From assembly GCA_965140415.1 (NCBI GenBank), contig OZ223209.1, positions 4,064,001 through 4,128,000 of the forward strand: a stretch of DNA of 64,000 nt, given 5' to 3'. This stretch comes from Myxococcota bacterium (GTDB taxonomy: Bacteria > Myxococcota_A > SURF-8). The position numbers and the translations under genes were made by a program. Below the pieces are notes generated by a model. It saw nothing but the letters and a program-made list of their open reading frames with translations. It did no database searches and was not told where the DNA came from. The first letter of the stretch is position 1. The number at the start of each line of letters is the position of its first letter. Shown piece after piece: positions 25,726-42,894 of the stretch.

Positions 25726-25862
25726 GTAATTTTCCCGGGTCAGCAATCCATTTCAAAATTGGTTAATAATCCCTGAGGGAACGAGTCATTACTTATAGCA
25801 TTAATGCTGAATCAGCTCAAAATTCCAGGCCCAATCGCTAGCGTCTTCCATTGATCCACCCC

Positions 25863-26702: not shown

Positions 26703-29700
26703 TTACTCAAGAGTTCGTCTTTTCACTGCGTATACAATATCCTCAATCCAAATGGAGGCATCTTTAAGTTCTGAGATCTCTGGATCAGTCAGCACTTCTA
26801 GGTGACTCCTTTGGGCAACAGAGATCATCACATCACGAAAGACTCTCCAGCATCCTTTGTAGATTCCCATGGCGATCCATTGTGAGGCTAATTTGACGAT
26901 ATGGTCACGTGATATACCTTGGTCAAGTGCATCTTCAGTATGACGGTGGATGCTAATTCTCCATCTACCTCGAGCGATATTTTCAAGTTTATCGATGAAT
27001 GTATCAGAATCAAAGAAATGATGGCGATACTTCTTATCTATCAACGGGAAAACGTGTGAGTTTGCCCAATCACGCAGCTCAAGTTTATTCGCTCTTTCCC
27101 ATATCTCGAGCAAGGCAAGGTCACCAAGGAATTGCAAATATGGCTCTAGCGCGATTAGCTGTCCCTTTTTTATCGGAGATCGACCTTTTTCTTTAAAGCC
27201 AAAGTTCATCGACAAGTGTTTGAACAAAGGACGTGGATCTGCTTGTTCAGCAATTATTTTTTCCACCAATGGTAGTGTGCTAGGGGTTGCTAGAAATAGA
27301 GCTAGTTGGAAAAACCGGTCGATGTCTTTCAGTTTTGGCCAGTGTCGAAGTAAGAGTTCTTCTGCATGATCATAGGGGATGAGAAAAAGAACCTTTGAAA
27401 GATGGTATCCTAAGTCATTATTCTTATCACCTTGATCAGCAGCATAGCTATCAAAGATAGAAGTGAAAATCTCTTTGAATTCCAGATTCCAGCAAGGTGG
27501 GAAAAACTGAAGCCAATAGCCAGCATCTCTTACATTATGGAGAAGTGTCGGTAGGTCGGAAAGTGTCGATCTATCGCCTAATAGCATCCTTCGCCCAAGA
27601 GCGGCACGATAAAATGGGCTAGTTTGGGGGATTTTTCGAAGACAATCCGGTGAACCACGATAACTTGAAGACCACAGGTAAAATGCTTGCTGTCTTACGT
27701 ATTTTGGCTCAGCCTCATTATCCCAAAGAGACAGGAGGCGCTCCATCGATTCTACGCTTAATGATTTCCCATGTGTCCAGTCCGGATTCCAATGTCGATG
27801 AGATGACATAAGCCATGGAGAATACTTTTCGGATTCATCACATTGTTCTTGAATCTTCGCATTTTGTCTAACAATACACTCTACAGCATCTGGATGGTCT
27901 ATTTCTGACAAAATTAGCATAATAGGCCACTTGAGGTCGTCATCAATCTGATGGATTAAAAACAGAATTGCGTTTTGCGGAAGACCTCGTGTAAATGCCA
28001 TCCTCAGTTCAGGCTCTGCGATGGAATTACGCGGTGACATTCCATATTCGTTATGCTCATTTGAAAGCGTTCGCCAGTGGTTCATCATTTCTATAATTGC
28101 AGTTTTGTCGTCAGAGCAGCAATTAAGAGCTGCCCACAACGCATCTGCAAGAATCTTGGTTTTGTCGGGTGAATTATGCCAGCATTCGGCAATAGCTGGT
28201 GCTAAGTTCTCTGAAGACATATGTCCGGCGAGTCTCAAAGTTCCTTTTCTTCCGTAATTCGTTAGATTTGTTTTTCTTAGATATTCCTTTAAGGCTTCAA
28301 TCAAGTTATGGCCATGCTCGTTCATGGCGTCGTTGATTGCAGTGTCTCGCCATTGTGAGCCAAGTGAAGGTTCAAAGTGGATACACAGTTTTATACCGCT
28401 GAGAAGATCTCCGTTTCGCAGTCTCGCTACTAGAATAGGCATGCTTTGACTATTCAGTTTTTCTGTAATCGAGAGGACTTGTGATCCTTTCGAAAGAGAA
28501 AGTTTATTTTCGATTGCCCATCTGAGAGAACTCAATATTTTAGGATTGTTGTCCAACCATGCCAGACAGGCATCCGCAATGGTTTGCTTATCATTTTCCT
28601 GATCGGTTCCTACGAGTCGCAAAGCCTCAAAACCAGCTAAAGGATTGTCCGCCATCACTGCAGGCAAATGCGAAGTCATATCCGATGTTAGCAACAAGGA
28701 TTGTCCTATTATTTCAGCGTAGTAGGGTTCTTCAAGAATATCTTTGCTTAGATCTCCCAAATTTAGATGATTGGCGATACATTTTGCTAGGACATGGTCT
28801 CGGAGTCTGTCGTGTTTGAAACGAAAGGTCTCAACATCACCATTCGCTTCCAATCCACACAAAGATGTCTCCAAGGCCAAGCATCTAAGAGCTGCAGGTG
28901 TTCCAGAATCTTCCGAGAAGGATGCGAGAATATCTGACCAGCGTGGTACCATTACGTTATTTGTGAGCATCCAGCTTGCCAGCTTCTCCAAAGCATTCCA
29001 ACAGTCAGTTGCTGCCAGCCTAATTGATTGAGAGCCTTTTTTAATTTCATCATTTATGTAATCGTAAACAAGCGAAGAACATTCTATAGATCGGCTTGCT
29101 TGGGTTTTCCAACGGCTGATCCACATTGCAAGTAGAAGTGGATCCCCACCAAGTGAGCGGGCAATATCGGATGCTTCCAAATGAGTTAATTGATGTTCTC
29201 CAGCAGTATTTCTAATGAGATATTCAACGCTAGTTTTTGCACGGAAACGACCGATATTAAAAGCACGTTTTAAGACACCTGTGCGAAAGCTAGTGGAAAG
29301 AGCATCTAAAATTCGAGGCCAGATCGGACAAATAATAATCACTTTGGTCGATTTATATTTAACATTCGACCAGGCGAATAGTTTCTCTAACAATCGGGAA
29401 GGAGACTGACTACGATTAAGATCGTCTATCCCAATTAAGAGGCCCTGTTTCTGACTGGAAAGTCGCATTGCGCTTTGTCCTGCTTCATCCTCCAGCCCAG
29501 GACTCAGCGTTGTTAACCAATCACTAAGGGCAGACTCTAGAGTTGGGTTCCTATCCACAATTTCATCTGGTAACCATAAGCCAAAACCAATATCTGACCA
29601 GCTTTTAAGTATTTTCTGCGTAGCGACGCTTTTGCCGAATCCTGAATCCCCTAGCAGAAGAGTCAGCCCATTATCTGTTTTTTTTAAATGTTTTATCAGG

Positions 29701-30353
29701 AATTGATCAATTGGTCTCGCAACATCCGTTTCTAAATCGTAGTCGAATAAAGTCGTTGTATGCCTTTCCACAGATTTGCAGCATAGTTCACCAAACTGGT
29801 CAAGAGACAAGCGCTCCTGGGTAATTCCTAAGTATTTCCTTCTAATCCATTGTCCATCTGCTTTAATATCAAGAAATTCCGATAAGCGAGCTGCATCCCA
29901 TATATCCAGCTCAATGCTAACGCTAGAGCATGCATCTACAACTGAATCGTAGGTTTTTGAGTTCACGCGCTGATTGCAGGTTAAAATTAAAGTGATGTTA
30001 GCATCGGGATGCTTTCTTCTGACATCAGTAGCCCACTTCGTTGCTTTATGAACATCTCCTAAAACAGTTCTAGGGCCTCTATTCGCCGGGATATTCAGCC
30101 ATTTCTTGTCGAGATCAGATTCGGTGGTTTGCTCCACTAAAATGTATTCTGGGGGCACAGAGTCAGTACGAGCGAATACGCCATCGAGAGGATCCTTTAC
30201 TGTCTGTCCGGCTGTATTGACCCCTGTGTGAACCATTCCTTCGTAATTTGGCTTTGAATAACGGAGAACAGCCATTGCAAGGCGTTCAAACAAGGCAAAA
30301 TCAGTCATTGTTGCTATTTGTTGGAGTGTTTGGCTGTCCTGCGATTGGGCCAT
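26703..30353 (-). CDS. STAND-like P-loop NTPase with N-terminal REase-like domain (Avs-like)
   Basis: N-terminal FERLA...HTGVN..GQTVKDPLDG...IWD; Walker A GDSGFGKS; Walker B IGIDD; GDPLLL; FRFKHD; long helical C-terminus; AT-rich. Confidence 0.78.
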   Translation of the reverse strand: MAQSQDSQTLQQIATMTDFALFERLAMAVLRYSKPNYEGMVHTGVNTAGQTVKDPLDGVFARTDSVPPEYILVEQTTESDLDKKWLNIPANRGPRTVLGDVHKATKWATDVRRKHPDANITLILTCNQRVNSKTYDSVVDACSSVSIELDIWDAARLSEFLDIKADGQWIRRKYLGITQERLSLDQFGELCCKSVERHTTTLFDYDLETDVARPIDQFLIKHLKKTDNGLTLLLGDSGFGKSVATQKILKSWSDIGFGLWLPDEIVDRNPTLESALSDWLTTLSPGLEDEAGQSAMRLSSQKQGLLIGIDDLNRSQSPSRLLEKLFAWSNVKYKSTKVIIICPIWPRILDALSTSFRTGVLKRAFNIGRFRAKTSVEYLIRNTAGEHQLTHLEASDIARSLGGDPLLLAMWISRWKTQASRSIECSSLVYDYINDEIKKGSQSIRLAATDCWNALEKLASWMLTNNVMVPRWSDILASFSEDSGTPAALRCLALETSLCGLEANGDVETFRFKHDRLRDHVLAKCIANHLNLGDLSKDILEEPYYAEIIGQSLLLTSDMTSHLPAVMADNPLAGFEALRLVGTDQENDKQTIADACLAWLDNNPKILSSLRWAIENKLSLSKGSQVLSITEKLNSQSMPILVARLRNGDLLSGIKLCIHFEPSLGSQWRDTAINDAMNEHGHNLIEALKEYLRKTNLTNYGRKGTLRLAGHMSSENLAPAIAECWHNSPDKTKILADALWAALNCCSDDKTAIIEMMNHWRTLSNEHNEYGMSPRNSIAEPELRMAFTRGLPQNAILFLIHQIDDDLKWPIMLILSEIDHPDAVECIVRQNAKIQEQCDESEKYSPWLMSSHRHWNPDWTHGKSLSVESMERLLSLWDNEAEPKYVRQQAFYLWSSSYRGSPDCLRKIPQTSPFYRAALGRRMLLGDRSTLSDLPTLLHNVRDAGYWLQFFPPCWNLEFKEIFTSIFDSYAADQGDKNNDLGYHLSKVLFLIPYDHAEELLLRHWPKLKDIDRFFQLALFLATPSTLPLVEKIIAEQADPRPLFKHLSMNFGFKEKGRSPIKKGQLIALEPYLQFLGDLALLEIWERANKLELRDWANSHVFPLIDKKYRHHFFDSDTFIDKLENIARGRWRISIHRHTEDALDQGISRDHIVKLASQWIAMGIYKGCWRVFRDVMISVAQRSHLEVLTDPEISELKDASIWIEDIVYAVKRRTLE

Positions 30354-30398
30354 AGGGGGTCCTCTTACACCGGTATAGTCAAAAAAGATGTCGAACGA

Positions 30399-33300
30399 CT
30401 AAAGGGACACATCAAGAATAAAAGAATCGACTACTAACGGCGTCTTCGAAAGCTGGCTACTTGATTCTTTTAATTCCTTAAGCGTGTCAGCAATATTTTG
30501 AGTATGCCGATGTTTTCCTTTCTTTTTCTCGTTCTTCGGGCAGTTTGGATCCCACTGATCGCAGTGATACCAGCCAACAAGGTAGATTCCGTGTCGACAC
30601 GCAGCACTATTGAGGTAGCGATCAACAAGCTGATTCTTCATGGCTGAATCGAGATCACTGTTCCAACACCCCTTGCATTCGATGATAACGGTCAGCTTGT
30701 CATTATTTTCTCTAGAAACGGCATCGATACGGATATCCGTTTGATCCCCAATATTGATCCTTGTTTCGCGATTGATGATTATTCCGAGGGAATCCAGATC
30801 TCGTTGCAATTCATCGACCACTACTCGAGAGAAAGCTGGCTCGTCTTTAGGCCGATAGACGACTTTCTGCCCATTCTTGTTTTCATTCCAGAAATTCAGT
30901 TTTGCCATTCTTGCGTTGTCTTGAATCCGAGATTGCAGCCTTTCCAACGATTCCAAGACAACAGATAAGAGGTCACCCTCGCTATTAACAATACGTTTTC
31001 CGTTATCGGAGAAAAGCGCGTAGACTTCTGAAACTTTTGGTGGATTCCAGTTGTGTTCAAGCATCAGTTGCTGCGCTTCTGGTATGCTCCATCGAATCCA
31101 TTCCAATTCTGGAAACTTACCAGCAATAGTCGTTAATGCATCAATCCCTGCCGAAGTTTTTCTGTACTTGATTACTCTGAATACATTGCTCTTAACTTCT
31201 GTAATTTGTTGCCTTGCAGAAACAAATCCTTGTGGAGGAGGTGGATCGTCGCTGTATGGGAACAGATCAACGAGAAGAATGAACAGCTCGGCAAGATCAT
31301 TCTCACTGGCGTGGTTATAAAATCGATTGAAATATTCCTCAGAACTGTTTCCCATGGATAGAAACAGTTCGTTGCCGAAATCATTGCATCGCAATGCGGC
31401 TTCGCGGATCAGCGACCACGATTCGATGGGCCGATAGCGGAATAACGCTTTTCCAGCATAGACCGCCAATTTGAAAAATGGATCGCTCTTTTTCGAGATG
31501 AGTGAAACGACCTCCCCCGCATAATCGAGCGCTTCATTACCTTCACCATGTTTGAGAATGCTTTCCAGAATGTCGCCGAAACATTCAGGCCTTAAGCTGA
31601 TGTCATATAGCTTTTGAGTTAATGCAATTTCAATATTTTCATCCCACAGCAACTCGACACGTCTCGGAACAAATAGGATTGAATTTTCAGCATCGCTATT
31701 TTGACCGTCGATCATTTCTATTAAGCTATGTATCATGTCAGATTTTGCATCTTTATATGCAGCAAGGAGCAGAGGTTTCAGTTCTGCATCTTCATCATCA
31801 TTATTTGAAATGGGATAACGCCAGAATATCGCATTCCATTTTTTCCAAGTGGCGGTCTCGAATTTCGCTAAAATCGAAGGGGACGCCTTTTCCAATAAAT
31901 GCCATGCCGCATATCCACAAATCATTTCGGTGGGTAAGTGATTCGTTCTAATCCATCTACTCGTTAATGGATCAATTTCCAGAATGTACCTTTTTGCAAT
32001 CTCCTGATATTTTTCTTTCTCTGAGACTGATGCTCTTTCCCAACCCGGAGACTTTGTTAAATCGTCGGGAAAGCTATTGTGGGGAGGTGATTCTGAAGAT
32101 TCTCTTTCCAACTCAAAAGAAATATTCTGCCAAAGTTCGATGCGACCTTTTTCTTCGATGGCTTCAATGCATTTTTGGATATGATCTTGAGGATCATGCC
32201 ACTGTGATCGTTGATTCTGCCATTTTTTCCTCTCTGCTTCCAATCGTTGTTTTTGCCTCTCAATTTCTTCTGGGCTAAACGAATGGAAAATTGGTTCAAG
32301 AATCGAATCCCCCTTAAGGGAATTATAGAATTGATGCTTGATTGTTTCTGAGAAGCCGGAGAAGCAGTATCTAATTATTTCACCCAGATGTTTCTTGCTC
32401 TCATCGTTTTCTATAGATTGCAGAATCGAGATGGCCCAATCAACATCGTCTTCAGAGATCGGAAAATCGCTAATGCCAAACAAATCATGACTGGAAAGCG
32501 TAATACGTTCTGCCAATAGCAAGAATAATTTCCTTCGTATTGACTTCTCCGAAACCAGTTTTTGTTGAATTTCTCTACTTTGCCTGAGATCGTATGGATT
32601 ATTTGATTGGATACGCTCCACGAGTACGTCTGACAGTTTCGTAGCAATGATATCATCATCAAGATGGTCCAGACTTCGAAGAACAATATCTTCCGGCAAA
32701 TTCCAGAATGGTCCCATGTGCCATCCTTGAACTATACGTATCCAGTGGAGGGCCAGTGACAGATCGGATTTCGATAAATTATTGGGCAGTCCTTTGAGGA
32801 AGCTATAATAGCTTCCGAAGAACATATACTCCTTGGGATTTGTAAGAAGCACAAATAGCTCTTCGGTAGTTATGTGAGCCGGCCAAAGGCATGCCAAGCC
32901 ATGACCTTTGAGTTGATCCTTTGGATCTGAACCTGCCAACCCTTCTGCAAGGGGGTGAAGTTTTAATTGATGGGCTTCGTTACCGATCCGCTTTACCGAA
33001 GAGGCTGCCATATCGCGGACGACATCTGGCTCGCCTTGATCCAGAGCCATACGTACCAGTTCATCTTGTATTTCATTCGAGTCGCATCTGCATTGTCGGA
33101 TCATCTGCAAAGCAATGCGACGAATCATAATGTCTTCGGATTGGTTCAAAACGATTGGCAATAGGTATTCCCAAAGTGCAGGAAATGATAAATGCGAGAA
33201 ATTTACCTCGTAGTCAGGGTAAGGTATGGTCTTGTTTCTATAAGCATTTACTAAACCAAGAATGGCTTTTTCTTTTATTTGCTCAGTTAGGGAGTCTGAA

Positions 33301-34832
33301 CTAATTGCCAAAAAGACCTCTGGATTTCTATCCTGAATTATCTGTAGTATTTCAGAAGAATACCTGATAAGCCAGCCAGTCACCTCATGAAGCTGGGGTA
33401 ACACCTTTCCGCTTGGGTTAAATAATAAAGGAATTATCTGTTCCGCAGAGATTTTCGTTTCTTGGCAGTACTGGGCTGTAAGGTATTCTTTGATATTATG
33501 AACAGACCATTCTAAACGAGTTGCACCTAGACTTGAAAAAAACGGAGTGTCGAATATTTCTTGATAGTGATCAAATCCTGCTTGGAATTCAGCCCATTCC
33601 TCGATTTGTATAAGCTCAGTAAGAAGCATATCGGAATTAACTGATTGGCTTTTATCAGAATCAATGAAAACGGTATTCTTTCCAGAAAACAACATCAAAG
33701 CAGCTATTTTCGATAGTTCATTCTTTCGCTTTTCAGGAGAGATTCTTCCAAGTAACCTTCTGCTTTTCCTACTAGGATTTGATTCTTGGCAGTATATCAG
33801 GATCTGACTTTCAAACAATTCTTCACGCTTTTCTGGAATTGCCCCATGTTGTTTATAATACCTTAGTAGCGAATTGAGCTTAAAGGGAGTATTCGCAAAT
33901 ATTGTTGCGTTTTTATTATAGATTTCGCCAACAAACGCATCGGAATCCAAACCTTCCCTTAAGGCTGCTTCGATAACATTTTTGTGTTGAAGTGGTGCTA
34001 ATTTAAATAATTCATACTCATCTTTAGTAAATAGCGGTTTTAGTCTTGCTTCAAAGTATTGGGGCCAAGCAGCAGATCTGCAAGCAAGTCTAACTTTGAG
34101 TCTATTCCAGTCAGTATTTGTCCTTGTCAATCCTTCAACAATAACTTGCGCAGCTGTTTGTACGTCGATAAGACATTCATCTAAACTGTCAATAAACAAA
34201 CACAAGTTATGAGTGCCTGTCACCCAATTCTGAAATATCGGGTTTTTGAATAACTCTTCTCTAAGTTCTAACCCGCTACCAATTGAGTTTAAATCCTTAA
34301 ATAATACTTGGTCACCGTTAGCCTCATACTCAAGACTGAGGCGTTCAAATTCTTGTTTCAAGGTCGTTGACTTACCAATTCCTGGTTCCCCAAGCAAACC
34401 GAGGAAACGGTAAGATTCAATCTCTTTCAATAACTTAGCGGTATTGCTATACTCATTGAATTCACCCAAGTCTGGTAAGAATCCGTTGAACTTAATAATT
34501 CCGATACTAAGAGCTTCTGTCGCGATCCGACTCGGAATCCAATATCTATTCCAATTGTACTTTGGAAAAGAATTTTGGGTTGAAACACTTGATGTTACCT
34601 CAAGTGTTTGATTTTCTGAGACCTCCTCAGCACTTTCATGTATGAGTTCAGTTGAAGATATTTTCATCACGGACAAAGCACTTTTAATCAACCATCGGGA
34701 TATGGCGTAAAGAAATCCCAAAATACCAACAAGGCCAGCCATTAGACCGACCCATTCTGCAGGTTTATCTACTCCATCTGAAAGCCAAGAATATACGGGT
34801 TTGATAAAAATCAAAAACTTCTCAAGCATCAT
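30399..34832 (-). CDS. NACHT/STAND NTPase with N-terminal TM and C-terminal PD-(D/E)XK nuclease
   Basis: Walker A GEPGIGKST, Walker B FIDSLDE, LACR, NTPF, EYLTA; C-terminal TDIRI...IIECKGCWN...QLVDRYL...GIYLVGWY; ATGA overlap with the type IIG stop. Confidence 0.85.
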   Translation of the reverse strand: MMLEKFLIFIKPVYSWLSDGVDKPAEWVGLMAGLVGILGFLYAISRWLIKSALSVMKISSTELIHESAEEVSENQTLEVTSSVSTQNSFPKYNWNRYWIPSRIATEALSIGIIKFNGFLPDLGEFNEYSNTAKLLKEIESYRFLGLLGEPGIGKSTTLKQEFERLSLEYEANGDQVLFKDLNSIGSGLELREELFKNPIFQNWVTGTHNLCLFIDSLDECLIDVQTAAQVIVEGLTRTNTDWNRLKVRLACRSAAWPQYFEARLKPLFTKDEYELFKLAPLQHKNVIEAALREGLDSDAFVGEIYNKNATIFANTPFKLNSLLRYYKQHGAIPEKREELFESQILIYCQESNPSRKSRRLLGRISPEKRKNELSKIAALMLFSGKNTVFIDSDKSQSVNSDMLLTELIQIEEWAEFQAGFDHYQEIFDTPFFSSLGATRLEWSVHNIKEYLTAQYCQETKISAEQIIPLLFNPSGKVLPQLHEVTGWLIRYSSEILQIIQDRNPEVFLAISSDSLTEQIKEKAILGLVNAYRNKTIPYPDYEVNFSHLSFPALWEYLLPIVLNQSEDIMIRRIALQMIRQCRCDSNEIQDELVRMALDQGEPDVVRDMAASSVKRIGNEAHQLKLHPLAEGLAGSDPKDQLKGHGLACLWPAHITTEELFVLLTNPKEYMFFGSYYSFLKGLPNNLSKSDLSLALHWIRIVQGWHMGPFWNLPEDIVLRSLDHLDDDIIATKLSDVLVERIQSNNPYDLRQSREIQQKLVSEKSIRRKLFLLLAERITLSSHDLFGISDFPISEDDVDWAISILQSIENDESKKHLGEIIRYCFSGFSETIKHQFYNSLKGDSILEPIFHSFSPEEIERQKQRLEAERKKWQNQRSQWHDPQDHIQKCIEAIEEKGRIELWQNISFELERESSESPPHNSFPDDLTKSPGWERASVSEKEKYQEIAKRYILEIDPLTSRWIRTNHLPTEMICGYAAWHLLEKASPSILAKFETATWKKWNAIFWRYPISNNDDEDAELKPLLLAAYKDAKSDMIHSLIEMIDGQNSDAENSILFVPRRVELLWDENIEIALTQKLYDISLRPECFGDILESILKHGEGNEALDYAGEVVSLISKKSDPFFKLAVYAGKALFRYRPIESWSLIREAALRCNDFGNELFLSMGNSSEEYFNRFYNHASENDLAELFILLVDLFPYSDDPPPPQGFVSARQQITEVKSNVFRVIKYRKTSAGIDALTTIAGKFPELEWIRWSIPEAQQLMLEHNWNPPKVSEVYALFSDNGKRIVNSEGDLLSVVLESLERLQSRIQDNARMAKLNFWNENKNGQKVVYRPKDEPAFSRVVVDELQRDLDSLGIIINRETRINIGDQTDIRIDAVSRENNDKLTVIIECKGCWNSDLDSAMKNQLVDRYLNSAACRHGIYLVGWYHCDQWDPNCPKNEKKKGKHRHTQNIADTLKELKESSSQLSKTPLVVDSFILDVSL

Positions 34833-37800
34833 CCCCTCCCCACCGGCATCCGGGGCGGGGCAGTCTTCCACATCAGGTCGATTTCCTCGGGGGTGAGGCC
34901 ATAGGCCTGGTTGACGAGGTCGGCCAGGCGGCGTTCGTGCTGTTGGGCTTCGGCGGCGCGGCGCTGCATGGCGGGGACGATCTCCTCGTAGGCCTCGCGC
35001 AGCTCCTTCACGCCACTCACGCTCAGCTTGCCTGCCGCTTTGGGGCGGCGCTTCTTCACTTCGGCCATGAAGGCGTCGAAGTCCAGAGCGGCGGCGTCTT
35101 GCAGCTTTAGGCCCGGTTTGTCGATGGACTGGATCTGCTTCAGCCAGTCGAGCAGATCGCGCTGGGCGCTTTGGTTGGCGCGGGTCAGTTCGATCAGCGC
35201 CGCCACGCGCTCCTCAGCCTCGGTGCGTATGGTTTCGGTGGGCGGAGCGATGGGGAGTTTCTTGACGTATGGGATGTCCATCGCCAAAGCTTCGTCTTTT
35301 TTGTGTGGGAAGTATCGGAACGAATAGTACCAGTTTGCTGGCGAGTTCATAACTGCCAATACCCAAAAATCGACTTTGGGAATCATGATCGCTGCATCAT
35401 TGATAAGAACATTGTTGTCATCAAAAGAAATGCGCGAATGGAAGGCTATCCTCTGTATCACCATTTTAGGTTTGTAAAATAGTTCCCAATAATCAACTGG
35501 ATCTTGGATTTCATTCCATTTGTACAGGCCAGGTTTTCTTCCCGGCCAAGTTCCCTGTTTCTTTGCATCCCAATCCTTTGGACGTGGTTCCAATCTCTCT
35601 TGGAACTGGAGAAGGTGTTGCTTTACTGCTTGATAGTGATCGATTTCAACTCCATGCCGCGCAAAGATCATCCAAAGTCCAGCCCATTCAGGATGCCATC
35701 TCTTAATGTCCTGACCACGCAAGTAAGGTTTCACTATTTCTTCTGACCTTGGATCTTCTTTTAGCAAATCGTTACGTGTTGGCGTATCAATGAGGAATGC
35801 TTCGTTTAAGCCTGTCTTGATTCCGTAGCATGGGTTTGTATTGATAAATTTGGCAAGTGGTACGCCATTTCCTTTAATCTTTGCCATCAAATCTACGACC
35901 GCCGGGTGCTCAAGACTCCACGCCTTTTCCGAAAACCGCGACCAGGGCACCTCGTAACCATGCTGGCGAACGAACTGCTTGAGGTTGATGTCTGCCAGTT
36001 TCTCACGAGGCACGGGACAGATGACCACCGGCGCGGTTGGCTCGGGTTGGGAAGGTGGATCGGGTAGTTGCTCGCCCCGGTCGTGTTCCGCTAGCTTTTT
36101 AATGAGACCGTGGTAGTGGTGCAATACTTTCCCCGCAGCATCACGTACAGTCGGGCGACGCACCGACACGATGCAAGGGAAGACGTCGGCGTCCTCGAAG
36201 ATGGGCGCGTGGCCGAAGTCGAGGATCTGCTCGAAGACCGTATGTTCGGCGAAAAAACGCCGCAGCGCCTCGCCGTAACCGGACTTCAACCACTTGTTCG
36301 TCACGATGAACGACAGCACGCCGCCCGGCTTCAAGGCCTGCACGCCGCGCTCGTAGAAATAGGTGTACAGATCCGCCACGCCGTCGAAGGAATGGTAATG
36401 CTCCTTCAGATACGGCTTGATCGGCGATAGCAGTTCCTGGCGAACGTAAGGCGGGTTGCCGATCACCACATCGAAACCGCCATCATCAAAGACATTCTTA
36501 AAGCGCTCTTGCCAATCGAATGGAGTCTCCGAATAGGCTGCATCGTCCACGATGGAGTCACCCTGCTGGATGTTGTCGTCCAGGAAGGTCAACGGCTTGC
36601 CGCGCTCGGCGGTCTTCAGCCACAGGCTGAGCTTGGTGATCTCCACCGACTCCTTCGAGAGATCCACGCCGTAAAGGTTGTGGTTGAGGATGGTCTTGTT
36701 CAGGTCGAACAGGCTGCGCTGCCCGCCCTCGAAGGCCGCCAGGGCGTCGTTGACGCGCTCGTACTGCGCCAGCAGGTAATCGAAGGCCGCGATCAGAAAC
36801 GCGCCGGAGCCGCAGGCCGGATCCAGCACGCGGGTGCGCTTCAGCACCTCGTCGCGGTAGGCCTCCCAGAACTCGTGCTCGGCCTTGGCCAGCTTGCGCC
36901 CGTGCGCCTCGGGGATGGCATCCAGTCCGATGCGCTGGCGAAGCTCCTCCTCCTTGCGCCGCAGATAACCGCCCAGCGCCACATCCACGATGTACTGCGT
37001 CACCATTGCGGGCGTGTAGTAAACGCCCTGGGTCTTGCGACGGCCCTTCTTCTTGTCGAAGTCCTCACCAGACGCGGCGGCTTTCAGTTCCTCCAGGTCG
37101 GTGACCGACTGCTCGAAGATGTGGCCCAGCACCTCGACCGATACGTCCGTGTCGAAATCGTAGCGCGTGATGGCGTTCAACTCGTCGCACAACTCATCCG
37201 GCAGGCTGATCTGCTCGTCGATGACCGGATCGGGCTTGAACAGCCCGCCGTTGTAACCGGGGATGGGCGGGTTGTCGTTGCCCTTGTCCACCCAGCGGAA
37301 GACCGCCTTGTAGCGCGTCCAGACGGCGGTCGGATTGTAGGGATCCTTGTAGTCGTGCGCGGTCTTGATCGTGTTCGGCGGCAAGAGCCCGCGATCCTCG
37401 CAAAAGGCGATGAACAGCACGCGGTCGAGGATCTTCTGCGCCGTCTCGATCATGGCGGCCTTGTCGCCGTCGGTCTGCTCGGTCAGGTATTGCACCAGCT
37501 TGAGGCGCGTGTCCTTGTACTCGGCGTAAAGCGCCTTGGTGATGGCCTCCTCGGCGTTGTCGGACTCGCGCAGGAGCGCATCCACGCGGGAGTCTCCATC
37601 CTGCTTGGCTTCCAGCGGCAGGAAGTTCTCGGTACAGAGCAGGAAGAAGAAACGCCGGAAGACGGCATCGTCGGCAAGATCGGCCAGCTTGAAGCGTTCA
37701 TAGAAGGCGGGTGTCTTGCTGGTGCGGTAGAGGCGGATCTCTCGATAGTTGCTAACCAGCACCCACTTGCAGCCCTCGGTGTAGTTGGCGTAGCGCCAGC

Positions 37801-38239
37801 CCTGCTCAACGGCGGATTCCGTGCGCCCGGAGGCGGGACGGTCCAGGTTGTTGACCGCGCCCTTCAGTTCGATCGGCGCGACGATGCGACCCTTCAGGCG
37901 CGTGGCCTTGCTGGCGGATTCGGTGGCGGTGAAGAAACCCAGCGCGCCATCAGCCGAGCCGCCGCCATCGGAGATATGCGCCTCGGCATGCAGCGTCCAG
38001 GCTTCGCCTTCGCCCTGGATGACGGAGCGGTAGCCCAGCACCTCGCCAAAGATGTCGCGCAGAAACTCGCCGTGCAGCGAGACTTCCTTGATGACGTCCA
38101 GCGTCCCACGCTCCAGCGAGGTGATCCAGCGCGCCACCACGGCCCGGCGGGCGTCCATATCGGACGGAAAGGCAAAGCCCGCCATCGCTTTGGCGAGCGT
38201 CTTTTCATGAAACAAGGGTTTGACGTGACCTGTGGGCAT
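34829..38239 (-). CDS. Second type IIG restriction-modification enzyme (N6-adenine MTase + nuclease)
   Basis: ADGALG...IELK; YNGGLF; GVYYTP; LDPACGSGAFL; IGNPPY; GIKTGLNEAF and PYLRGQDIKRW in the TaqI-C-like TRD. Confidence 0.93.
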   Translation of the reverse strand: MPTGHVKPLFHEKTLAKAMAGFAFPSDMDARRAVVARWITSLERGTLDVIKEVSLHGEFLRDIFGEVLGYRSVIQGEGEAWTLHAEAHISDGGGSADGALGFFTATESASKATRLKGRIVAPIELKGAVNNLDRPASGRTESAVEQGWRYANYTEGCKWVLVSNYREIRLYRTSKTPAFYERFKLADLADDAVFRRFFFLLCTENFLPLEAKQDGDSRVDALLRESDNAEEAITKALYAEYKDTRLKLVQYLTEQTDGDKAAMIETAQKILDRVLFIAFCEDRGLLPPNTIKTAHDYKDPYNPTAVWTRYKAVFRWVDKGNDNPPIPGYNGGLFKPDPVIDEQISLPDELCDELNAITRYDFDTDVSVEVLGHIFEQSVTDLEELKAAASGEDFDKKKGRRKTQGVYYTPAMVTQYIVDVALGGYLRRKEEELRQRIGLDAIPEAHGRKLAKAEHEFWEAYRDEVLKRTRVLDPACGSGAFLIAAFDYLLAQYERVNDALAAFEGGQRSLFDLNKTILNHNLYGVDLSKESVEITKLSLWLKTAERGKPLTFLDDNIQQGDSIVDDAAYSETPFDWQERFKNVFDDGGFDVVIGNPPYVRQELLSPIKPYLKEHYHSFDGVADLYTYFYERGVQALKPGGVLSFIVTNKWLKSGYGEALRRFFAEHTVFEQILDFGHAPIFEDADVFPCIVSVRRPTVRDAAGKVLHHYHGLIKKLAEHDRGEQLPDPPSQPEPTAPVVICPVPREKLADINLKQFVRQHGYEVPWSRFSEKAWSLEHPAVVDLMAKIKGNGVPLAKFINTNPCYGIKTGLNEAFLIDTPTRNDLLKEDPRSEEIVKPYLRGQDIKRWHPEWAGLWMIFARHGVEIDHYQAVKQHLLQFQERLEPRPKDWDAKKQGTWPGRKPGLYKWNEIQDPVDYWELFYKPKMVIQRIAFHSRISFDDNNVLINDAAIMIPKVDFWVLAVMNSPANWYYSFRYFPHKKDEALAMDIPYVKKLPIAPPTETIRTEAEERVAALIELTRANQSAQRDLLDWLKQIQSIDKPGLKLQDAAALDFDAFMAEVKKRRPKAAGKLSVSGVKELREAYEEIVPAMQRRAAEAQQHERRLADLVNQAYGLTPEEIDLMWKTAPPRMPVGRG

Positions 38240-38520
38240 CCGCTACCTGCTTGAAAGAAAATATCCCAATCAAAACCAACGCTTGCAATATCGTCTACGG
38301 TGAATCGCCCCTGGCTGCTGCTTCCGAATCAGTAGGCAAGTTTATAGCATTTATGGGGCAAAGGCGGAAAGGAATTTATGTGGAGTTATCGAGGGGATAG
38401 GTGATCAACGAAGGGGTGTGACTTACTCTGGCACACAGCTTTGCTGCTATTCTTAAATAGACAATCGGCTTGTCCTGGCATAGGATACGAAACGAAAACA
38501 TTTATAATGGGAGAACGGAT

Positions 38521-38736
38521 ATGAAAGTAAACCATCCAATTTTGGGCAAAGTCAAGCAATTTGATAGAACCCCTTTGCCAGAGAAACTTTCTGGCTGTTC
38601 TTTCGACACCAAAGCGGGGTTCTGGCGTTTCGAGAGTGATGGAAGTTGCATGATGAGGTCAAATGATCCATCAAGACCGGTCTGCGGAACCAAAAAGAAA
38701 GACATTGAAACAGGTGAAGATGAAAAAGGCGAATAA
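38521..38736 (+). CDS. Graspetide (ATP-grasp RiPP) precursor peptide, 71 aa
   Basis: MKVNHPILG...CGTKKKDIETGEDEKGE; Thr/Lys donors followed by Asp/Glu acceptors at the C-terminus; RBS GGAGA; TAATG coupling to the ATP-grasp gene. Confidence 0.8.
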   Translation: MKVNHPILGKVKQFDRTPLPEKLSGCSFDTKAGFWRFESDGSCMMRSNDPSRPVCGTKKKDIETGEDEKGE

Positions 38737-39692
38737 TGGATGTTCTTTCTCCTGAGATTCTCTTAATCTCAAATACTCACGATTATTCCAGTGACTTGGT
38801 CGCAGCTGAGCTTCATACTCGAAAAGCAAAATACCTTCGCTTAAATCGCGATAAATTCAACAAAATGGAACTGATCTTATTCCCTTCTACCCCACTTATC
38901 AAGGGGCGATGGGAAGATATTGATTTCCAAGTAAGTGCGGATGTATTGAAATCCATCTATTTTCGGGCTCCGGTATTCCTGCGGGATAATTATCAGCCTG
39001 ATCTGCTTCCAGAAGAACAATTGGCGAGGGGACAATGGGCTGCTTTTCTTCGAGCTTTGACAATCTTTGAAGATGCCACTTGGGTTAATCATCCCATGTA
39101 CACGTACCAAGCTGAGGTAAAGGCTTATCAACTCAGAATCGCTCAGAAAGTGGGGTTTAGCGTTCCAGAAAGCATTGCGACCAATTTCCCCAAACCCTAT
39201 GCGAGTAACAGGGACTGGATCGTAAAAACGATGGAGCCAATAATCCTGAGATTTGATAGCAAAGAAGGATTTATATATACGAACTCTGTCGATAGCGAAG
39301 AACTTGAGAACGGTGACTACTCTTCAGCTCCTGTCATGATTCAGGAAAGAATTGAGCCGAAAGTTGATGTCAGAGTTACAATTATCGGCGAGAAACTCTT
39401 TCCTGTTTCCATCAAGAAAAATGGTTCTGGGATTGAGGGAGATTGGCGTCTGCAGAAAAACGATGTAGTCTATACTCCCATTGGCCTGCCAAAGGATGTT
39501 CGGAATATGATTCACGAATTGATGAATAGATTGAATCTCACCTTCGGTGGAATGGATCTTCTGTTGCAGGATAACAAGTATTATTTTCTGGAGGTAAACC
39601 CAACAGGTGAATGGGGATGGTTGATGGATAACACGGGAGCGCCGATAGACAAGGCAATTTGTGATTATTTGATGGGAAATTCCAATGTATAA
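38736..39692 (+). CDS. MvdC/MvdD-like ATP-grasp peptide ligase
   Basis: YLRLN, WVNHP, K..QLRIAQKVGFSVP, IQERIEPKVDVRVTIIG, DWR, FGGMDL, YFLEVNPTGEWGWL. Confidence 0.92.
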   Translation: MDVLSPEILLISNTHDYSSDLVAAELHTRKAKYLRLNRDKFNKMELILFPSTPLIKGRWEDIDFQVSADVLKSIYFRAPVFLRDNYQPDLLPEEQLARGQWAAFLRALTIFEDATWVNHPMYTYQAEVKAYQLRIAQKVGFSVPESIATNFPKPYASNRDWIVKTMEPIILRFDSKEGFIYTNSVDSEELENGDYSSAPVMIQERIEPKVDVRVTIIGEKLFPVSIKKNGSGIEGDWRLQKNDVVYTPIGLPKDVRNMIHELMNRLNLTFGGMDLLLQDNKYYFLEVNPTGEWGWLMDNTGAPIDKAICDYLMGNSNV

Positions 39693-40293
39693 CTATTTTG
39701 GAAATGCTTGGAATTGGATACTTCAGGAAATCGTGCCGATATTGTACGCATATAGAGTGGAGAAAATACTCCTTACCAAGCACGAGAATATTCACGTTTC
39801 TTCGTACTCTATCGAGGAATTGACAGATTATTCGGAGTTATCTCAATTTATACAGGGACAACTCTCATTAGAAGATGAACGACGAAAAACAATCGATGAG
39901 AAGGCTAAATCTTCATTGGTTTCCATCACAGTTGTAATCGCCGTAATGCTGGCTCTGCTTAAAGACGGGGCCAGCGTAGGCCTCCCCTTTGGGATTTTAA
40001 TAATGCTTGCCATTTTGTGCTTTTTGTTTGCAGTTATCGGAGCGGTTAAAGCAATCGAAAACTTGCCATACGCCCAAGTTACCGTTGAGGATCTGATCAA
40101 GGAAAATGGTTCTTCGCTGGAGCACAAGAAGATTTGCGAGAAGGATATGTTATTGGAATTTTACAAATACTACAAAGCCAACTCTGTATTAAACAATAAC
40201 AAAGGAAACTTTGTTGATTCGTCTTTCAAATCCATCAGGAACGGGGTCATTCTCCTGTGTGCCGCCATTGTTTTGACAATGCTTTTGCCTTAA
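39685..40293 (+). CDS. 3-TM membrane protein coupled to the ATP-grasp ligase
   Basis: Overlaps the ligase by 8 nt; EDERRKTIDEKAK then two TM helices, a soluble loop, and NNKG...C-terminal TM. Confidence 0.8.
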   Translation: MYNYFGNAWNWILQEIVPILYAYRVEKILLTKHENIHVSSYSIEELTDYSELSQFIQGQLSLEDERRKTIDEKAKSSLVSITVVIAVMLALLKDGASVGLPFGILIMLAILCFLFAVIGAVKAIENLPYAQVTVEDLIKENGSSLEHKKICEKDMLLEFYKYYKANSVLNNNKGNFVDSSFKSIRNGVILLCAAIVLTMLLP

Positions 40294-40308: not shown

Positions 40309-40647
40309 CTACCCCACCTCCTCCAACACCCGTTTCACCACCTCGACAATCATTTTCTGGTGGGCTTTCTTTGCCGGGCGCAGGAGTTCCCGCATCTCGG
40401 CCATGTGGGGATAGGTTCGGGCCTTGAAGTCCTCGTCAGCAATGTCGAACAGCACAGCCATCTCGACATCGATGGCCTGCGCGATCTCGTAGAATTTCTC
40501 CACCGACGGGATCGAATGCCCACGCTCCAGGCGGCTGATGGTTTCCACCGCCACATTGACTTTCTCGGCTAACTTTTCCTGAGTAAGCCCCGCGTCCTTG
40601 CGGAATCGCCTGACACGATCTCCCAGTATTTTCTTGATATCCGGCAT
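40309..40647 (-). CDS. XRE-family HTH transcriptional regulator
   Basis: LGDRVRRFRKDAGLTQEKLAEKVNVAVETISRLERGHSIPS; RBS AGGAGG before the ATG at 40647. Confidence 0.92.
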   Translation of the reverse strand: MPDIKKILGDRVRRFRKDAGLTQEKLAEKVNVAVETISRLERGHSIPSVEKFYEIAQAIDVEMAVLFDIADEDFKARTYPHMAEMRELLRPAKKAHQKMIVEVVKRVLEEVG

Positions 40648-40649
40648 TG

Positions 40650-40703
40650 CGCCTCCTGTTTCTATTGAATGTCGCCGATCGGCGAGCGAATGAACAGGAG
40701 GCG
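40650..40703 (-). promoter_or_regulatory. Inverted repeat covering the XRE ribosome-binding site
   Basis: CGCCTCCTGTT (40650-40660) is the perfect reverse complement of AACAGGAGGCG (40693-40703); central palindrome TCGCCGATCGGCGA (40672-40685). Confidence 0.6.
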
Positions 40704-40917
40704 ATATGATTGATATTTTCATATTATAGGCGTATAGTGTTGTCTCGTTGGATAAACTTGATGGTCTTGGTCGGATAAAAGCCGGAAAACGGACTGGAAC
40801 GCCTACCGTTGCAACGAAAAACACGGCCACATTGTCGATGAGAAAAACACCCGAGTTTCGGGGATAAGAATTCTAAGGAACTGAATTTACATAGGATACA
40901 AGAAAAGGAGGGATGCG

Positions 40918-42894
40918 ATGCGAATGTGGATAGTGCTTTGGATGGGGCTTGCCGTTTGCGTTTTGGCTGGATGTTCCGACTCGGTGGTGACCTCTATGGA
41001 ACCGTTGGATGGCGATGCCGACAGCGATCAAACCGACGCTTCGGATGGCGACCACGATGGCATGGACGAACCCTTACTGGATGGCGATGAAGTTGTCGAT
41101 GGCGATGCTGATGGTGATGGTGTTGATGACCCGGATGGGGATGGTGAACTGGATGCGGAACAAGACTTCGACCCGGCGGATGGCGATACGGATAGCGATG
41201 CCGACGAAACGGATGACCAGCCCGTGTGCGAACCCAATGCCAGCTGGTGCGAGGAGACCGTTCTCCACGTCTGCAATGAGGATGGAACGGATGAATACAT
41301 CCCGACCGACTGCGGCCCCATCGGCTGCGAGGATGGCGCGTGTGTCGAGGAAAACGCGCTGGATCTGCGCGAGTATGGATCCTACGCCATGCTGAGCGAC
41401 AAACGGCTGACGTATGGGAAAACGGAGGCAAGCATCGAGATGTGGTTCGTGTCTGAATCCTTGCATCCCAGCACCATTTTGTATGCGGAAGGCGGCGTGA
41501 TTGCAATCAGGCTGTGGCAGGATGGACACATTTCCTACCAGGAGAAGCGCTCCGATATTGGCTGGACCTATGTGGATACGGCTCCCAATCCGTTTACCTT
41601 GACCGAGTGGCATCATCTTGCGGTCGTACGCGCGGGAGATCGGCTTTCCATTTTTCTCGATGGAATCAAGATACTCGAAGGCAACGGGCCACCATCCGAT
41701 AGTGGACTCGTTAGCGGTTCGGAGAACACGGTGGCCGGAGGATTTCTGAGTACGGAACACTACTGCTTTGCCGTGGTTGATGAACTCCGCATCTCCAACA
41801 GCGTCCGCTATGCCGAAGACTTCGAGCCCGCGTATCGGCATGAACCGGACGAGCAGACCATCGGCCTCTGGCACTTCGATGAAGGCGAAGGCAGCGTCGT
41901 TCACGATGCGAGCCCAAACGGCCACGATGGTTCGTTGCATGGCGATGCAACCTGGACAACGGATGCCGTCTGGCGCAACTGGCACTGCATTCCGCAGTGG
42001 GGACAGTGTCTGCCGGATTCGACGGATCGCAAAATCTGCCGGGAAGACGGGCTGGGCTGGGGCGAACCCACTGACTGCGGCCCCATTGGCTGCGAGGATC
42101 GTCATTGCATTGAAGAACATGCGCTGAGCTTCAACAACTCAGACGATGGCATTCAGGTTGCGGACCGATTCCTGATTCGGCGCGAAACCGAGGCCACCAT
42201 CGAAATGTGGGTCTGGTTGGAGGAACGAGAGACGACTGCAGACTTCGAGGGACATAACTTGTACATGGAAGGCGATCCGAGTCGATTGGTTTTGGCGGTG
42301 AATAACAATGGCAGGATTCATTTCTCGGAACACGACCCTGATGCCGGCTGGAACAATTTTCCAACTGTCGAAGGCGTTTTCCCTTTCGAGACCTGGGCCC
42401 ATCTCGCTGTTACGAAGAACGCGGCTCAGCGAATTCTCTTTGTGAACGGCGAGCAGGTGGCGGCCAGTCCGGCAGATACGGTGCCTTTCGATTACGTGCC
42501 GGAAGAGGCCTCTATTCTGGGCCGAAAGATGTATGGCCAGATCGACGAGCTACGCCTGTCGGATACGGTGCGCTACACGGAAGACTTCACGCCGGTCTTT
42601 CGTCATCAAGGCGAACGGTTCGATACCCCGCAGGACGAACACACCATCGGCCTCTGGCATTTCGACGCCAACGGCTGGGATGTCAGCGCCAATCGGTACG
42701 ATCTTGACGAGGATGCCTGCACATTCACCGACGAGGCCGTCTGGCGCAATTGGACCTGCGTCCCCGAATGGACAACCTGCGCGACGGAACAGGCCGTGCA
42801 GCGCTGCAACGCGAACGGTCGCTGGATGGAAGAGGAGTTGTGTACCGGCGGCACTTGCGAGACAATCAACAGCAGTAAGGCTGTCTGCCAATAG
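40918..42894 (+). CDS. Lipoprotein with DGD linker and two LamG/concanavalin-like domains
   Basis: Lipobox LAGC; DGD repeats; duplicated module PTDCGPIGCED...IEMW...WxHLAV...DELRxS..VRY..DF...TIGLWHFD...AVWRNW. Confidence 0.88.
   Translation: MRMWIVLWMGLAVCVLAGCSDSVVTSMEPLDGDADSDQTDASDGDHDGMDEPLLDGDEVVDGDADGDGVDDPDGDGELDAEQDFDPADGDTDSDADETDDQPVCEPNASWCEETVLHVCNEDGTDEYIPTDCGPIGCEDGACVEENALDLREYGSYAMLSDKRLTYGKTEASIEMWFVSESLHPSTILYAEGGVIAIRLWQDGHISYQEKRSDIGWTYVDTAPNPFTLTEWHHLAVVRAGDRLSIFLDGIKILEGNGPPSDSGLVSGSENTVAGGFLSTEHYCFAVVDELRISNSVRYAEDFEPAYRHEPDEQTIGLWHFDEGEGSVVHDASPNGHDGSLHGDATWTTDAVWRNWHCIPQWGQCLPDSTDRKICREDGLGWGEPTDCGPIGCEDRHCIEEHALSFNNSDDGIQVADRFLIRRETEATIEMWVWLEERETTADFEGHNLYMEGDPSRLVLAVNNNGRIHFSEHDPDAGWNNFPTVEGVFPFETWAHLAVTKNAAQRILFVNGEQVAASPADTVPFDYVPEEASILGRKMYGQIDELRLSDTVRYTEDFTPVFRHQGERFDTPQDEHTIGLWHFDANGWDVSANRYDLDEDACTFTDEAVWRNWTCVPEWTTCATEQAVQRCNANGRWMEEELCTGGTCETINSSKAVCQ

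Follow-up and report, generated by a model that had tools for sequence, protein, structure and literature searches.

Graspetide group 7 of Lee et al. 2020 corresponds to precursor cluster171 of Makarova et al. 2022, and marinomonasin is its characterised member. In the supplements of the latter paper (PMC8939145), the precursors of Marinomonas fungiae JCM 18476, Cohnella panacarvi, and Bacillus sp. JCE are placed in cluster171, many entries of which are labelled gr_07, i.e., group 7 of Lee et al. 2020, and the printed consensus of the C-terminus is TKKxDVETGEDQKGE. According to PMC9225448, heterologous expression of the M. fungiae cluster in E. coli gave the tricyclic peptide marinomonasin, and three dehydrations are given for marinomonasin, and likewise for the group 7 product Gra-3, in PMC9576775. 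Group 7 clusters are described in Carter et al. 2026 as often occurring with an acetyltransferase or an efflux transporter. In this study, we analysed a stretch of 64,000 nucleotides from a Myxococcota metagenome-assembled genome (MAG; contig OZ223209.1, positions 4,064,001 to 4,128,000; hereafter the window), in which three overlapping low-GC genes at 38521-40293 on the plus strand encode a 71-aa precursor, a 318-aa ATP-grasp maturase, and a 202-aa three-helix membrane protein. A preliminary description had regarded these genes as a candidate defence system based on a peptide that is made ribosomally and post-translationally modified (RiPP). Our analysis indicates that the region is very probably a complete and probably functional graspetide cassette of group 7 (marinomonasin type), horizontally acquired and carried as cargo in a defence island, with the membrane protein as its obligate third component. 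The cassette is thus already catalogued, as graspetide group 7 and as cluster171.

The precursor gene (38521..38736, +) encodes 71 aa followed by the stop codon, with the leader at residues 1-56 and the core at residues 57-71. The open reading frame (ORF) as listed spans 38470-38736, and the ATG at 38521 gives the 71-aa product; a putative Shine-Dalgarno sequence, GGAGA (38510..38514, +), can be read 6 nt 5' of this ATG. The precursor stop codon and the start codon of the ATP-grasp macrocyclase (graspetide synthetase) gene (38736..39692, +; 318 aa) share one base (TAATG), and the latter gene overlaps by 8 nt with that of the family-specific three-helix membrane protein (39685..40293, +; 202 aa). 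The GC content was 0.42-0.48 at 38-41 kb, compared with 0.61-0.63 at 36-38 kb and 0.57-0.60 at 41-44 kb. The coordinates, the overlaps, and the low GC all agree with the three overlapping AT-rich genes of the preliminary description. A sigma-70-like site was located at 38458-38486; such sites were no more frequent here than in shuffled sequence, and the promoter/terminator scan of the locus as a whole yielded sites no commoner than in shuffled sequence.

Relatives of the cassette were collected by an alignment-based scan of one-genome-per-species contigs, in which 365 ligase places were found and the best 80 were retrieved. The core motif stood just 5' of the ligase gene in 77 of these 80 loci, and of the remaining three, two were cut by a contig end and one had a variant core. 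An ORF matching the membrane-protein profile stood 3' of the ligase gene in 79 loci, the exception being a decayed locus with a truncated ligase. The whole trio was present in 76 of the 80 loci. The profile had been built from 66 of the proteins from the same 80 loci; five viral-contig loci, none of which had been used for the profile, served as an independent check, and all five contained the whole trio. The genes of the trio overlap or abut in most loci. Judging from the record titles of the 80 loci, the hosts belong to at least 12 bacterial and archaeal phyla, including Bacillota, Methanobacteriota, Chloroflexota, Bacteroidota, Acidobacteriota, Gammaproteobacteria, Desulfobacterota, Omnitrophota, Planctomycetota, Gemmatimonadota, and Myxococcota. 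These results indicate that the trio is conserved as a unit, to an extent far beyond chance. The membrane gene accompanies the ligase gene in nearly every locus, and the lack of conservation that the preliminary description had named as refuting its idea was thus not observed.

When 689 ORFs from 79 loci were clustered all against all, a cruder test, the ligase was recovered in 78 loci and the membrane protein in 73, followed by a flanking family present in only 5 of the 79. Since only the ligase and the membrane protein recur in the flanks, the cassette is self-contained. No conserved exporter, protease, or immunity gene was found in the flanks of the 79 loci, and neither an ATP-binding cassette (ABC) or major facilitator superfamily (MFS) transporter nor a conserved protease was found among the 208 nearest ORFs of the 52 loci of the context set defined below. 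The homologous clusters are accordingly free of a conserved exporter, and in the window itself Pfam annotation of the neighbouring genes showed no adjacent protease, ABC exporter, or tailoring enzyme, as had been noted before. As for its distribution, among 41 related genomes in the phylum of the window, two had the ligase, namely the window genome and its identical twin. The ligase is rare in viral collections, with five loci among 2.9 million contigs. Among 50,697 phage records there was no close relative of the ligase; two distant ATP-grasp genes (28-29% identity) belonged to other graspetide types.

The window precursor ends TKKKDIETGEDEKGE, and this core peptide (38689..38733, +) occupies its extreme C-terminus. 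Precursors of the family are 60-77 aa in length and terminate in [TS]KKxDxE[T]GEDxKGE. The core motif [TS]KKx[DC]xExGxD was present in 77 of 78 family precursors; core positions K2, K3, and E7 were found in all 78, and D5, G9, D11, and K13 in 77. By tblastn, relatives of the precursor were located directly 5' of the ligase gene in 72 loci. The window precursor has every one of the 8 columns that are invariant in alignment A4 (W35, K58, K59, D61, E63, G65, D67, and K69). The leader elements H-[IL]-L-[LI]..A and [YF][DN]...G.W are also kept, W35 being invariant and H5 and G33 nearly so in A4, with the first element in a degenerate form (HPILGKV). As read from the sequence, Thr and Lys are the predicted donors of the core and Asp and Glu the predicted acceptors. 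In 5 of the 80 loci (L008, L011, L045, L068, and L073), two or three tandem precursor genes were observed, having the same core and different leaders. The core and the leader both match cluster171/group 7, which supports the earlier view of the 71-aa peptide as a graspetide precursor.

The product of the second gene matched, over its full length, the NCBIfam models of ATP-grasp ribosomal peptide maturases (TIGR04187, 7.7e-60; MvdC, 2e-47; MvdD, 2.4e-33), and the assignment of this MvdC/D-like protein as a graspetide ligase is thereby upheld. Because all of these scores were below the curated cut-offs, the ligase is placed in the maturase superfamily and outside those named subfamilies. The protein collection contained 673 relatives of the ligase with approximately 45-52% identity, and all 45 invariant columns of alignment A1 are kept in the window ligase. 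None of the PADLOC-DB v2 models matched the precursor or the ligase, and neither the precursor nor the membrane protein could be assigned to a curated family. The microviridin type (group 1) was considered and rejected: the scores were 161.9 bits for TIGR04185 (cut-off, 425) and 115.7 for TIGR04184 (cut-off, 475), and this type expects two ligases (MvdC/MvdD), whereas the window has one ligase gene.

Some ligases of the protein collection deviate in their architecture. One protein of 599 aa (P0197) consists of a group 7 ligase, 43% identical to that of the window, fused to a three-helix membrane protein, and it may be either a genuine fusion or the result of a frameshift where two genes overlap. 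Longer fused ligase-membrane forms were searched for and none was found, which is weak evidence. Two other proteins (P0218 and P0271) carry 115-130 extra N-terminal residues.

The loci of M. fungiae, C. panacarvi, and Bacillus sp. JCE were all among the retrieved relatives. In the window, the core and the leader match the cluster171 consensus, and a single ATP-grasp maturase of the same clade lies directly 3' of the precursor gene. The marinomonasin cluster of M. fungiae JCM 18476 (L072) has the three genes arranged as in the window, the core TKKxDxETGEDxKGE at the C-terminus of the precursor and the leader elements in common with the window, and a ligase that is approximately 40% identical over the full length. 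The window differs in its host, a Myxococcota MAG, in its defence-island context, and in having K and E at two variable positions of the marinomonasin-type core. Marinomonasin itself is reportedly a product of 18 residues, and its bonds were, in the 2021 work of Kaweewan, reportedly one ester and two isopeptide bonds. The conserved three-helix membrane protein as the third gene is a feature derived here and lies outside the published definition of group 7.

This third protein was confirmed to have three transmembrane (TM) segments. Hydrophobic segments of the window protein are centred near residues 74, 103, and 183, and a confident AlphaFold2 model (predicted local distance difference test (pLDDT), 93.4; predicted TM-score (pTM), 0.85) begins with two helices at the N-terminus, after which come helices of 47 and 25 residues, a small hairpin, and a further helix of 49 residues. 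In the 75 downstream proteins compared, the family shares F/V-P at the N-terminus, [RK]K..[LI]EDKAK at the entry to the first hydrophobic helix, Y..AG..AL within the second, and N...N.IRNN...SY.CIRN at the entry to the third, followed by an unconserved tail of 0-103 residues. The median number of Lys plus Arg residues was 12 in the N-terminus, 1 in loop 1, and 6 in loop 2; from this distribution, the N-terminus and the long second loop are predicted to be cytoplasmic, and the helix layout of the AlphaFold2 model would place the conserved polar motifs at the cytoplasmic exit of the two long helices. Pairwise identity to the window protein was only 13-27%, except for one relative with 49%. The family is nevertheless large: its profile found 1831 cluster representatives at E ≤ 1e-3, and the number at 1e-10 was 875.

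No informative match for the membrane protein was obtained from the sequence and structure libraries. No Pfam family matched more than three of the 66 members, and matches to DUF4870 (2 members) and Phage_holin_3_6 (one) were treated as hydrophobic noise. PADLOC gave scattered weak matches only on the same 66 members, and the sole match of the window protein in PADLOC-DB v2 was PDC-M35B with an E-value of 0.022. The family profile had no match among the PDB sequences. In the literature on graspetide/ATP-grasp membrane proteins and anti-phage RiPPs, we found no paper describing this family; clusters of "uncharacterized membrane protein" are listed unnamed in Makarova et al. 2022 (PMC8939145), and one of them may be this family.

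The preliminary description had likened the membrane protein to the effector of Pycsar systems, PycTM. When eight PycTM proteins from Myxococcota genomes were compared with the window family, the architecture was indeed alike: a charged N-terminus, D-x-K-A leading into TM1, a TM hairpin followed by a cytoplasmic loop, a basic motif just ahead of TM3, and a size of about 200 aa. The predicted order of helices was also similar (a long helix, the TM hairpin, a loop of approximately 45-55 residues, and a long helix), whereas the N-terminal two-helix element of the window protein was absent from the PycTM model, which is of moderate quality (pLDDT 69). Homology was not found. PF18967 (PycTM) matched none of the 66 family members at E ≤ 0.01 and nothing in the whole window genome, and hhalign of the family against the eight PycTM proteins gave a probability of 0.78% (E 0.072, 34 columns), which is not significant. 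The PycTM models of PADLOC touched 4 of the 66 members weakly, with a best E-value of 0.0021, and a neighbour search with a protein language model gave one cluster with 11% PycTM members. A pyrimidine cyclase (PycC) gene is not adjacent in the window, and no cyclase family recurs in the flanks of the 79 loci. Because no profile or sequence homology was found, the membrane protein was not filed under PycTM; the likeness is one of architecture only, and the protein may nevertheless work like PycTM.

Subsequently, the gene neighbourhood was surveyed in a context set of 52 loci having at least two ORFs on each side, and the two nearest ORFs per side (208 in total) were annotated with Pfam. Excluded from this set were 23 contig-end loci, the duplicates L049 and L078, the window twin L002, and L023 and L040, in which the ligase ORF had fallen outside the ligase cluster. 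PADLOC was run on 115 of the 208 ORFs, namely 37 that looked defence-related and 78 that, except for one phage portal, had no Pfam match; only 2 of these 78 matched, indicating that the library does not match indiscriminately. A named defence component (PADLOC, E ≤ 1e-30) was present among the four nearest ORFs in 16 of the 52 loci, a raw, uncontrolled count that draws on the best 80 of the 365 loci and on ORF calls including some spurious small ORFs. These components were GajA with GajB (Gabija; 2 loci), GajA with a four-TM (4TM) effector of the CBASS type (1 locus), ThsA with ThsB (Thoeris; 1), ThsB (1), HamA (Hachiman; 1), type I (3) and type II (2) restriction enzymes, MkoA (Mokosh-like; 1), DruE (Druantia; 1), AbiEi with a HmaA/DrmD-like helicase (1), PD-T7-4 (1), and Ppl (1). 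Eight further loci had weaker or candidate-only defence matches, giving 24 of 52, and nine more had conjugation, partition, recombinase, transposase, or phage structural genes, giving 33 of 52. In the other 19 loci (e.g., Halomonas, Vibrio, and Marinomonas), the neighbours were purely housekeeping or unannotated. Thus, the proposed defence context stood for 16 to 24 of the 52 loci, in which the cassette lies beside known or probable defence genes, and did not extend to the 19 loci that have neither a defence nor a mobile neighbour. For scale, the lanthipeptide preprint of Shomar et al. 2024 gives defence co-localisation of 4.7% for random genes (±23 genes) and 26.6% for the validated lanthiphage clade, figures that are not like-for-like with counts of the four nearest ORFs.

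Individual loci give a more detailed picture of these surroundings. In Neobacillus and Gracilibacillus (L017, L022, and L039), the cassette adjoins a full Gabija pair or GajA, with E-values of about 1e-184 to 1e-221 for GajA/GajB, and in L039 the gene of the CBASS-type 4TM effector lies a few kb from the cassette. Both of the two plasmid copies adjoin an integrase gene; one has SIR2 and PIN genes within 7 kb, and the other has AbiEii/AbiEi and a UvrD-type helicase alongside.

Judging from the family, the ligase would bind the leader through the conserved H-I-L-L..A and YD...G.W elements, and ATP-dependent joining of the Thr/Lys side chains of the core to those of Asp/Glu would generate three cross-links in the last 15 residues. 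Since EDKAK and N..N..RN..SY..RN lie at the cytoplasmic ends of the helices, the membrane protein would receive the modified peptide or a ligase-peptide complex, and its anatomy suggests that this encounter would occur at the inner face of the membrane. What follows from the encounter is less certain. Dedicated release or export of the peptide is proposed tentatively, as a role with somewhat less than an even chance; a peptide-gated effector or a conflict module resembling a toxin/antitoxin pair is a possible but rather unlikely role, and an immunity or scaffold function is unlikely, with a small remainder left for some other role. The conflict module draws on the defence neighbourhood, the invariant core, and the lack of a protease or immunity gene. 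Release or export is favoured by the lack of another export route and by the reasoning of Makarova et al. 2022 (PMC8939145), who proposed a transport role for the membrane protein of thuringinin loci ('cluster 18'). Thuringinin-type (group 3) clusters likewise comprise a precursor, a single ATP-grasp enzyme, and an uncharacterised membrane protein, with no transporter; their precursor has multiple cores with Thr/Glu/Asp repeats, and their ligase belongs to a different branch from that of the window.

Several points weigh against reading the trio as an ordinary natural-product cassette with an obligate membrane partner that releases the peptide. To our knowledge, peptide exporters are not known to take the form of a three-helix protein that lacks an energy-coupling module, and the product carries a high charge. 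The core is nearly invariant from Archaea to Proteobacteria, which is unusual for a secreted competitive peptide, and the neighbourhood of defence and mobile genes fits a role in conflict at least as well as one in natural-product formation. The one fusion of ligase and membrane protein may have arisen artefactually, by a frameshift in overlapping genes. Furthermore, the acetyltransferase and the efflux transporter that Carter et al. 2026 associate with group 7 were absent among the 208 nearest ORFs of the 52 loci.

One rival idea is that the trio is a stand-alone anti-phage system of the abortive-infection or toxin/antitoxin-like kind, in which the intracellular peptide would close or open a PycTM-like effector and a shift in its level upon infection (host shut-off, ATP loss, or a phage protease) would let the effector collapse the membrane. 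Named defence genes near 16 of the 52 loci, or 24 with the weaker matches, agree with this idea, as do the neighbours in the window, a type IIG restriction-modification (R-M) enzyme and an EruA-like NACHT protein, the invariant core, and the lack of a conserved exporter, protease, or immunity gene. The weak leads to PycTM (4 of 66 members in PADLOC, the 11% cluster of the language-model search, and the similar layout of the models) point in the same direction, whereas the profile comparisons (hhalign, 0.78%; PF18967, 0 of 66) do not. In addition, no PADLOC model matches the ligase or the precursor, the three genes are translationally coupled in one operon with no evident sensor, and 19 of the 52 loci (those of Halomonas, Vibrio, and Marinomonas among them) have no defence or mobile neighbour. 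The marinomonasin obtained from E. coli was, according to PMC9225448, a processed peptide, and processing would be unnecessary for an intracellular gate. On balance, we regard such an anti-phage system as rather improbable. Its wider form, in which the group 7 trio would be a stand-alone immune or abortive-infection module in both Bacteria and Archaea with the invariant tricyclic peptide as an intracellular ligand controlling a PycTM-like effector, would explain why the core does not vary and why no exporter or protease accompanies it; we consider this form improbable.

Alternatively, the peptide might act outside the producer or in the envelope in a bacteriocin-like manner or as a protease inhibitor, the trio being ordinary competitive cargo of the island and the membrane protein serving for immunity or as an anchoring scaffold for the ligase, a part played by the ABC transporter MdnE in the case of microviridin. 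Small membrane proteins with several passes commonly act as immunity proteins, that of the cassette has an extracellular tail of variable length (0-103 residues), and the ligase-membrane fusion would suit a scaffold. Two or three precursor genes, seen in 5 of the 80 loci, are often found in natural-product clusters, and all graspetides characterised so far are protease inhibitors according to Makarova et al. 2022 (PMC8939145). However, an export route is still wanting, peptides secreted as antagonists usually diversify whereas variation in this core is almost absent, and no activity of marinomonasin is reported in the texts covered, so that this alternative also appears unlikely. A further possibility, that the membrane gene is a mere neighbour or that the small ORF is not a real gene, draws on the window alone, which offers adjacency only; it is refuted by the position, order, and overlap conserved in 76 of the 80 loci from at least 12 phyla, and its probability is negligible. 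Taken together, the findings favour a complete group 7 graspetide cassette with the membrane protein as its obligate third component.

In the window, the trio is divergent from the R-M and STAND genes, as had been reported. The nearest of these encodes a type IIG restriction-methylase (34829..38239, -; Pfam Eco57I, 1.3e-47; PADLOC REase_MTase_IIG, 2.8e-134), and beyond it lies the gene of a 1490-aa NACHT/STAND NTPase (30399..34871, -), which matched the NCBIfam models of the antiphage proteins EruA (7.1e-67) and HyoA (2.2e-48), both below the cut-off, and Pfam nSTAND_NTPase5 (6.3e-4). The NACHT gene and that of a 1216-aa protein together span 26703-34871 on the minus strand and are codirectional with the type IIG R-M gene. 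The 1490-aa protein had no match in PADLOC, and the 1216-aa protein had none in Pfam, NCBIfam, or PADLOC; the two genes may form an undescribed multi-gene NACHT defence operon. On the other side, convergent with the trio and outside the conserved cassette, lies the gene of an XRE-type helix-turn-helix (HTH) protein (40309..40830, -; Pfam HTH_3, 3e-16), relatives of which were found as neighbours in only 3 loci.

A large serine recombinase gene (22090-23838, -; Resolvase, Recombinase, and Zn-ribbon domains) is located at the transition between low and high GC, and it probably marks one end of an island that reaches to approximately 40.3-40.8 kb. Between the recombinase gene and the large defence-like genes, a gene at 24187-25746 (-) encodes a 519-aa pentapeptide-repeat protein that weakly matched the Hailong effector HalA (1.5e-15, below the cut-off) and the Qnr type. 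The gene at 40918-42894 (+), immediately beyond the low-GC island, encodes a 658-aa protein of secreted or lipoprotein-like character, with an N-terminal stretch rich in Asp, a pair of LamG/concanavalin-like domains, and Cys motifs that are repeated. The tRNA scan of the 64-kb window found none.

As a gene cluster, the cassette is ordinary, in that the precursor-ligase pair is catalogued and one member of the family has a solved product. What makes it worth attention is an orphan membrane protein whose position is conserved no less than that of the ligase and whose family has about 1800 cluster representatives, a core peptide that is nearly invariant across two domains of life, and the fact that roughly a third to half of the loci touch known defence genes. 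The defence reading is a reasonable but tentative hypothesis. In the literature on graspetide/ATP-grasp enzymes and anti-phage RiPPs, we found no test of a graspetide cassette against phage. If the trio is not protective, the membrane protein probably represents a novel type of small protein for peptide release or immunity, which would matter for the production of graspetides in other hosts. If it is protective, it would be the first anti-phage system built on a graspetide, likewise the first built on an ATP-grasp enzyme, and the second RiPP class in bacterial immunity after the lanthiphages, and a function would be given to a large orphan family of membrane proteins. Lanthiphages, which are class I lanthipeptide clusters and, in the preprint of Shomar et al. 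2024, provide the precedent for RiPP gene clusters serving as immune systems, differ from the graspetide cassette in their lanthionine chemistry, in being found only in Actinobacteria, and in the experimental nature of the evidence for protection, whereas the cassette is known here from its genes. The two are alike in that the lanthiphages form a RiPP clade co-localised with defence systems and mobile elements, as the group 7 cassette often is here.

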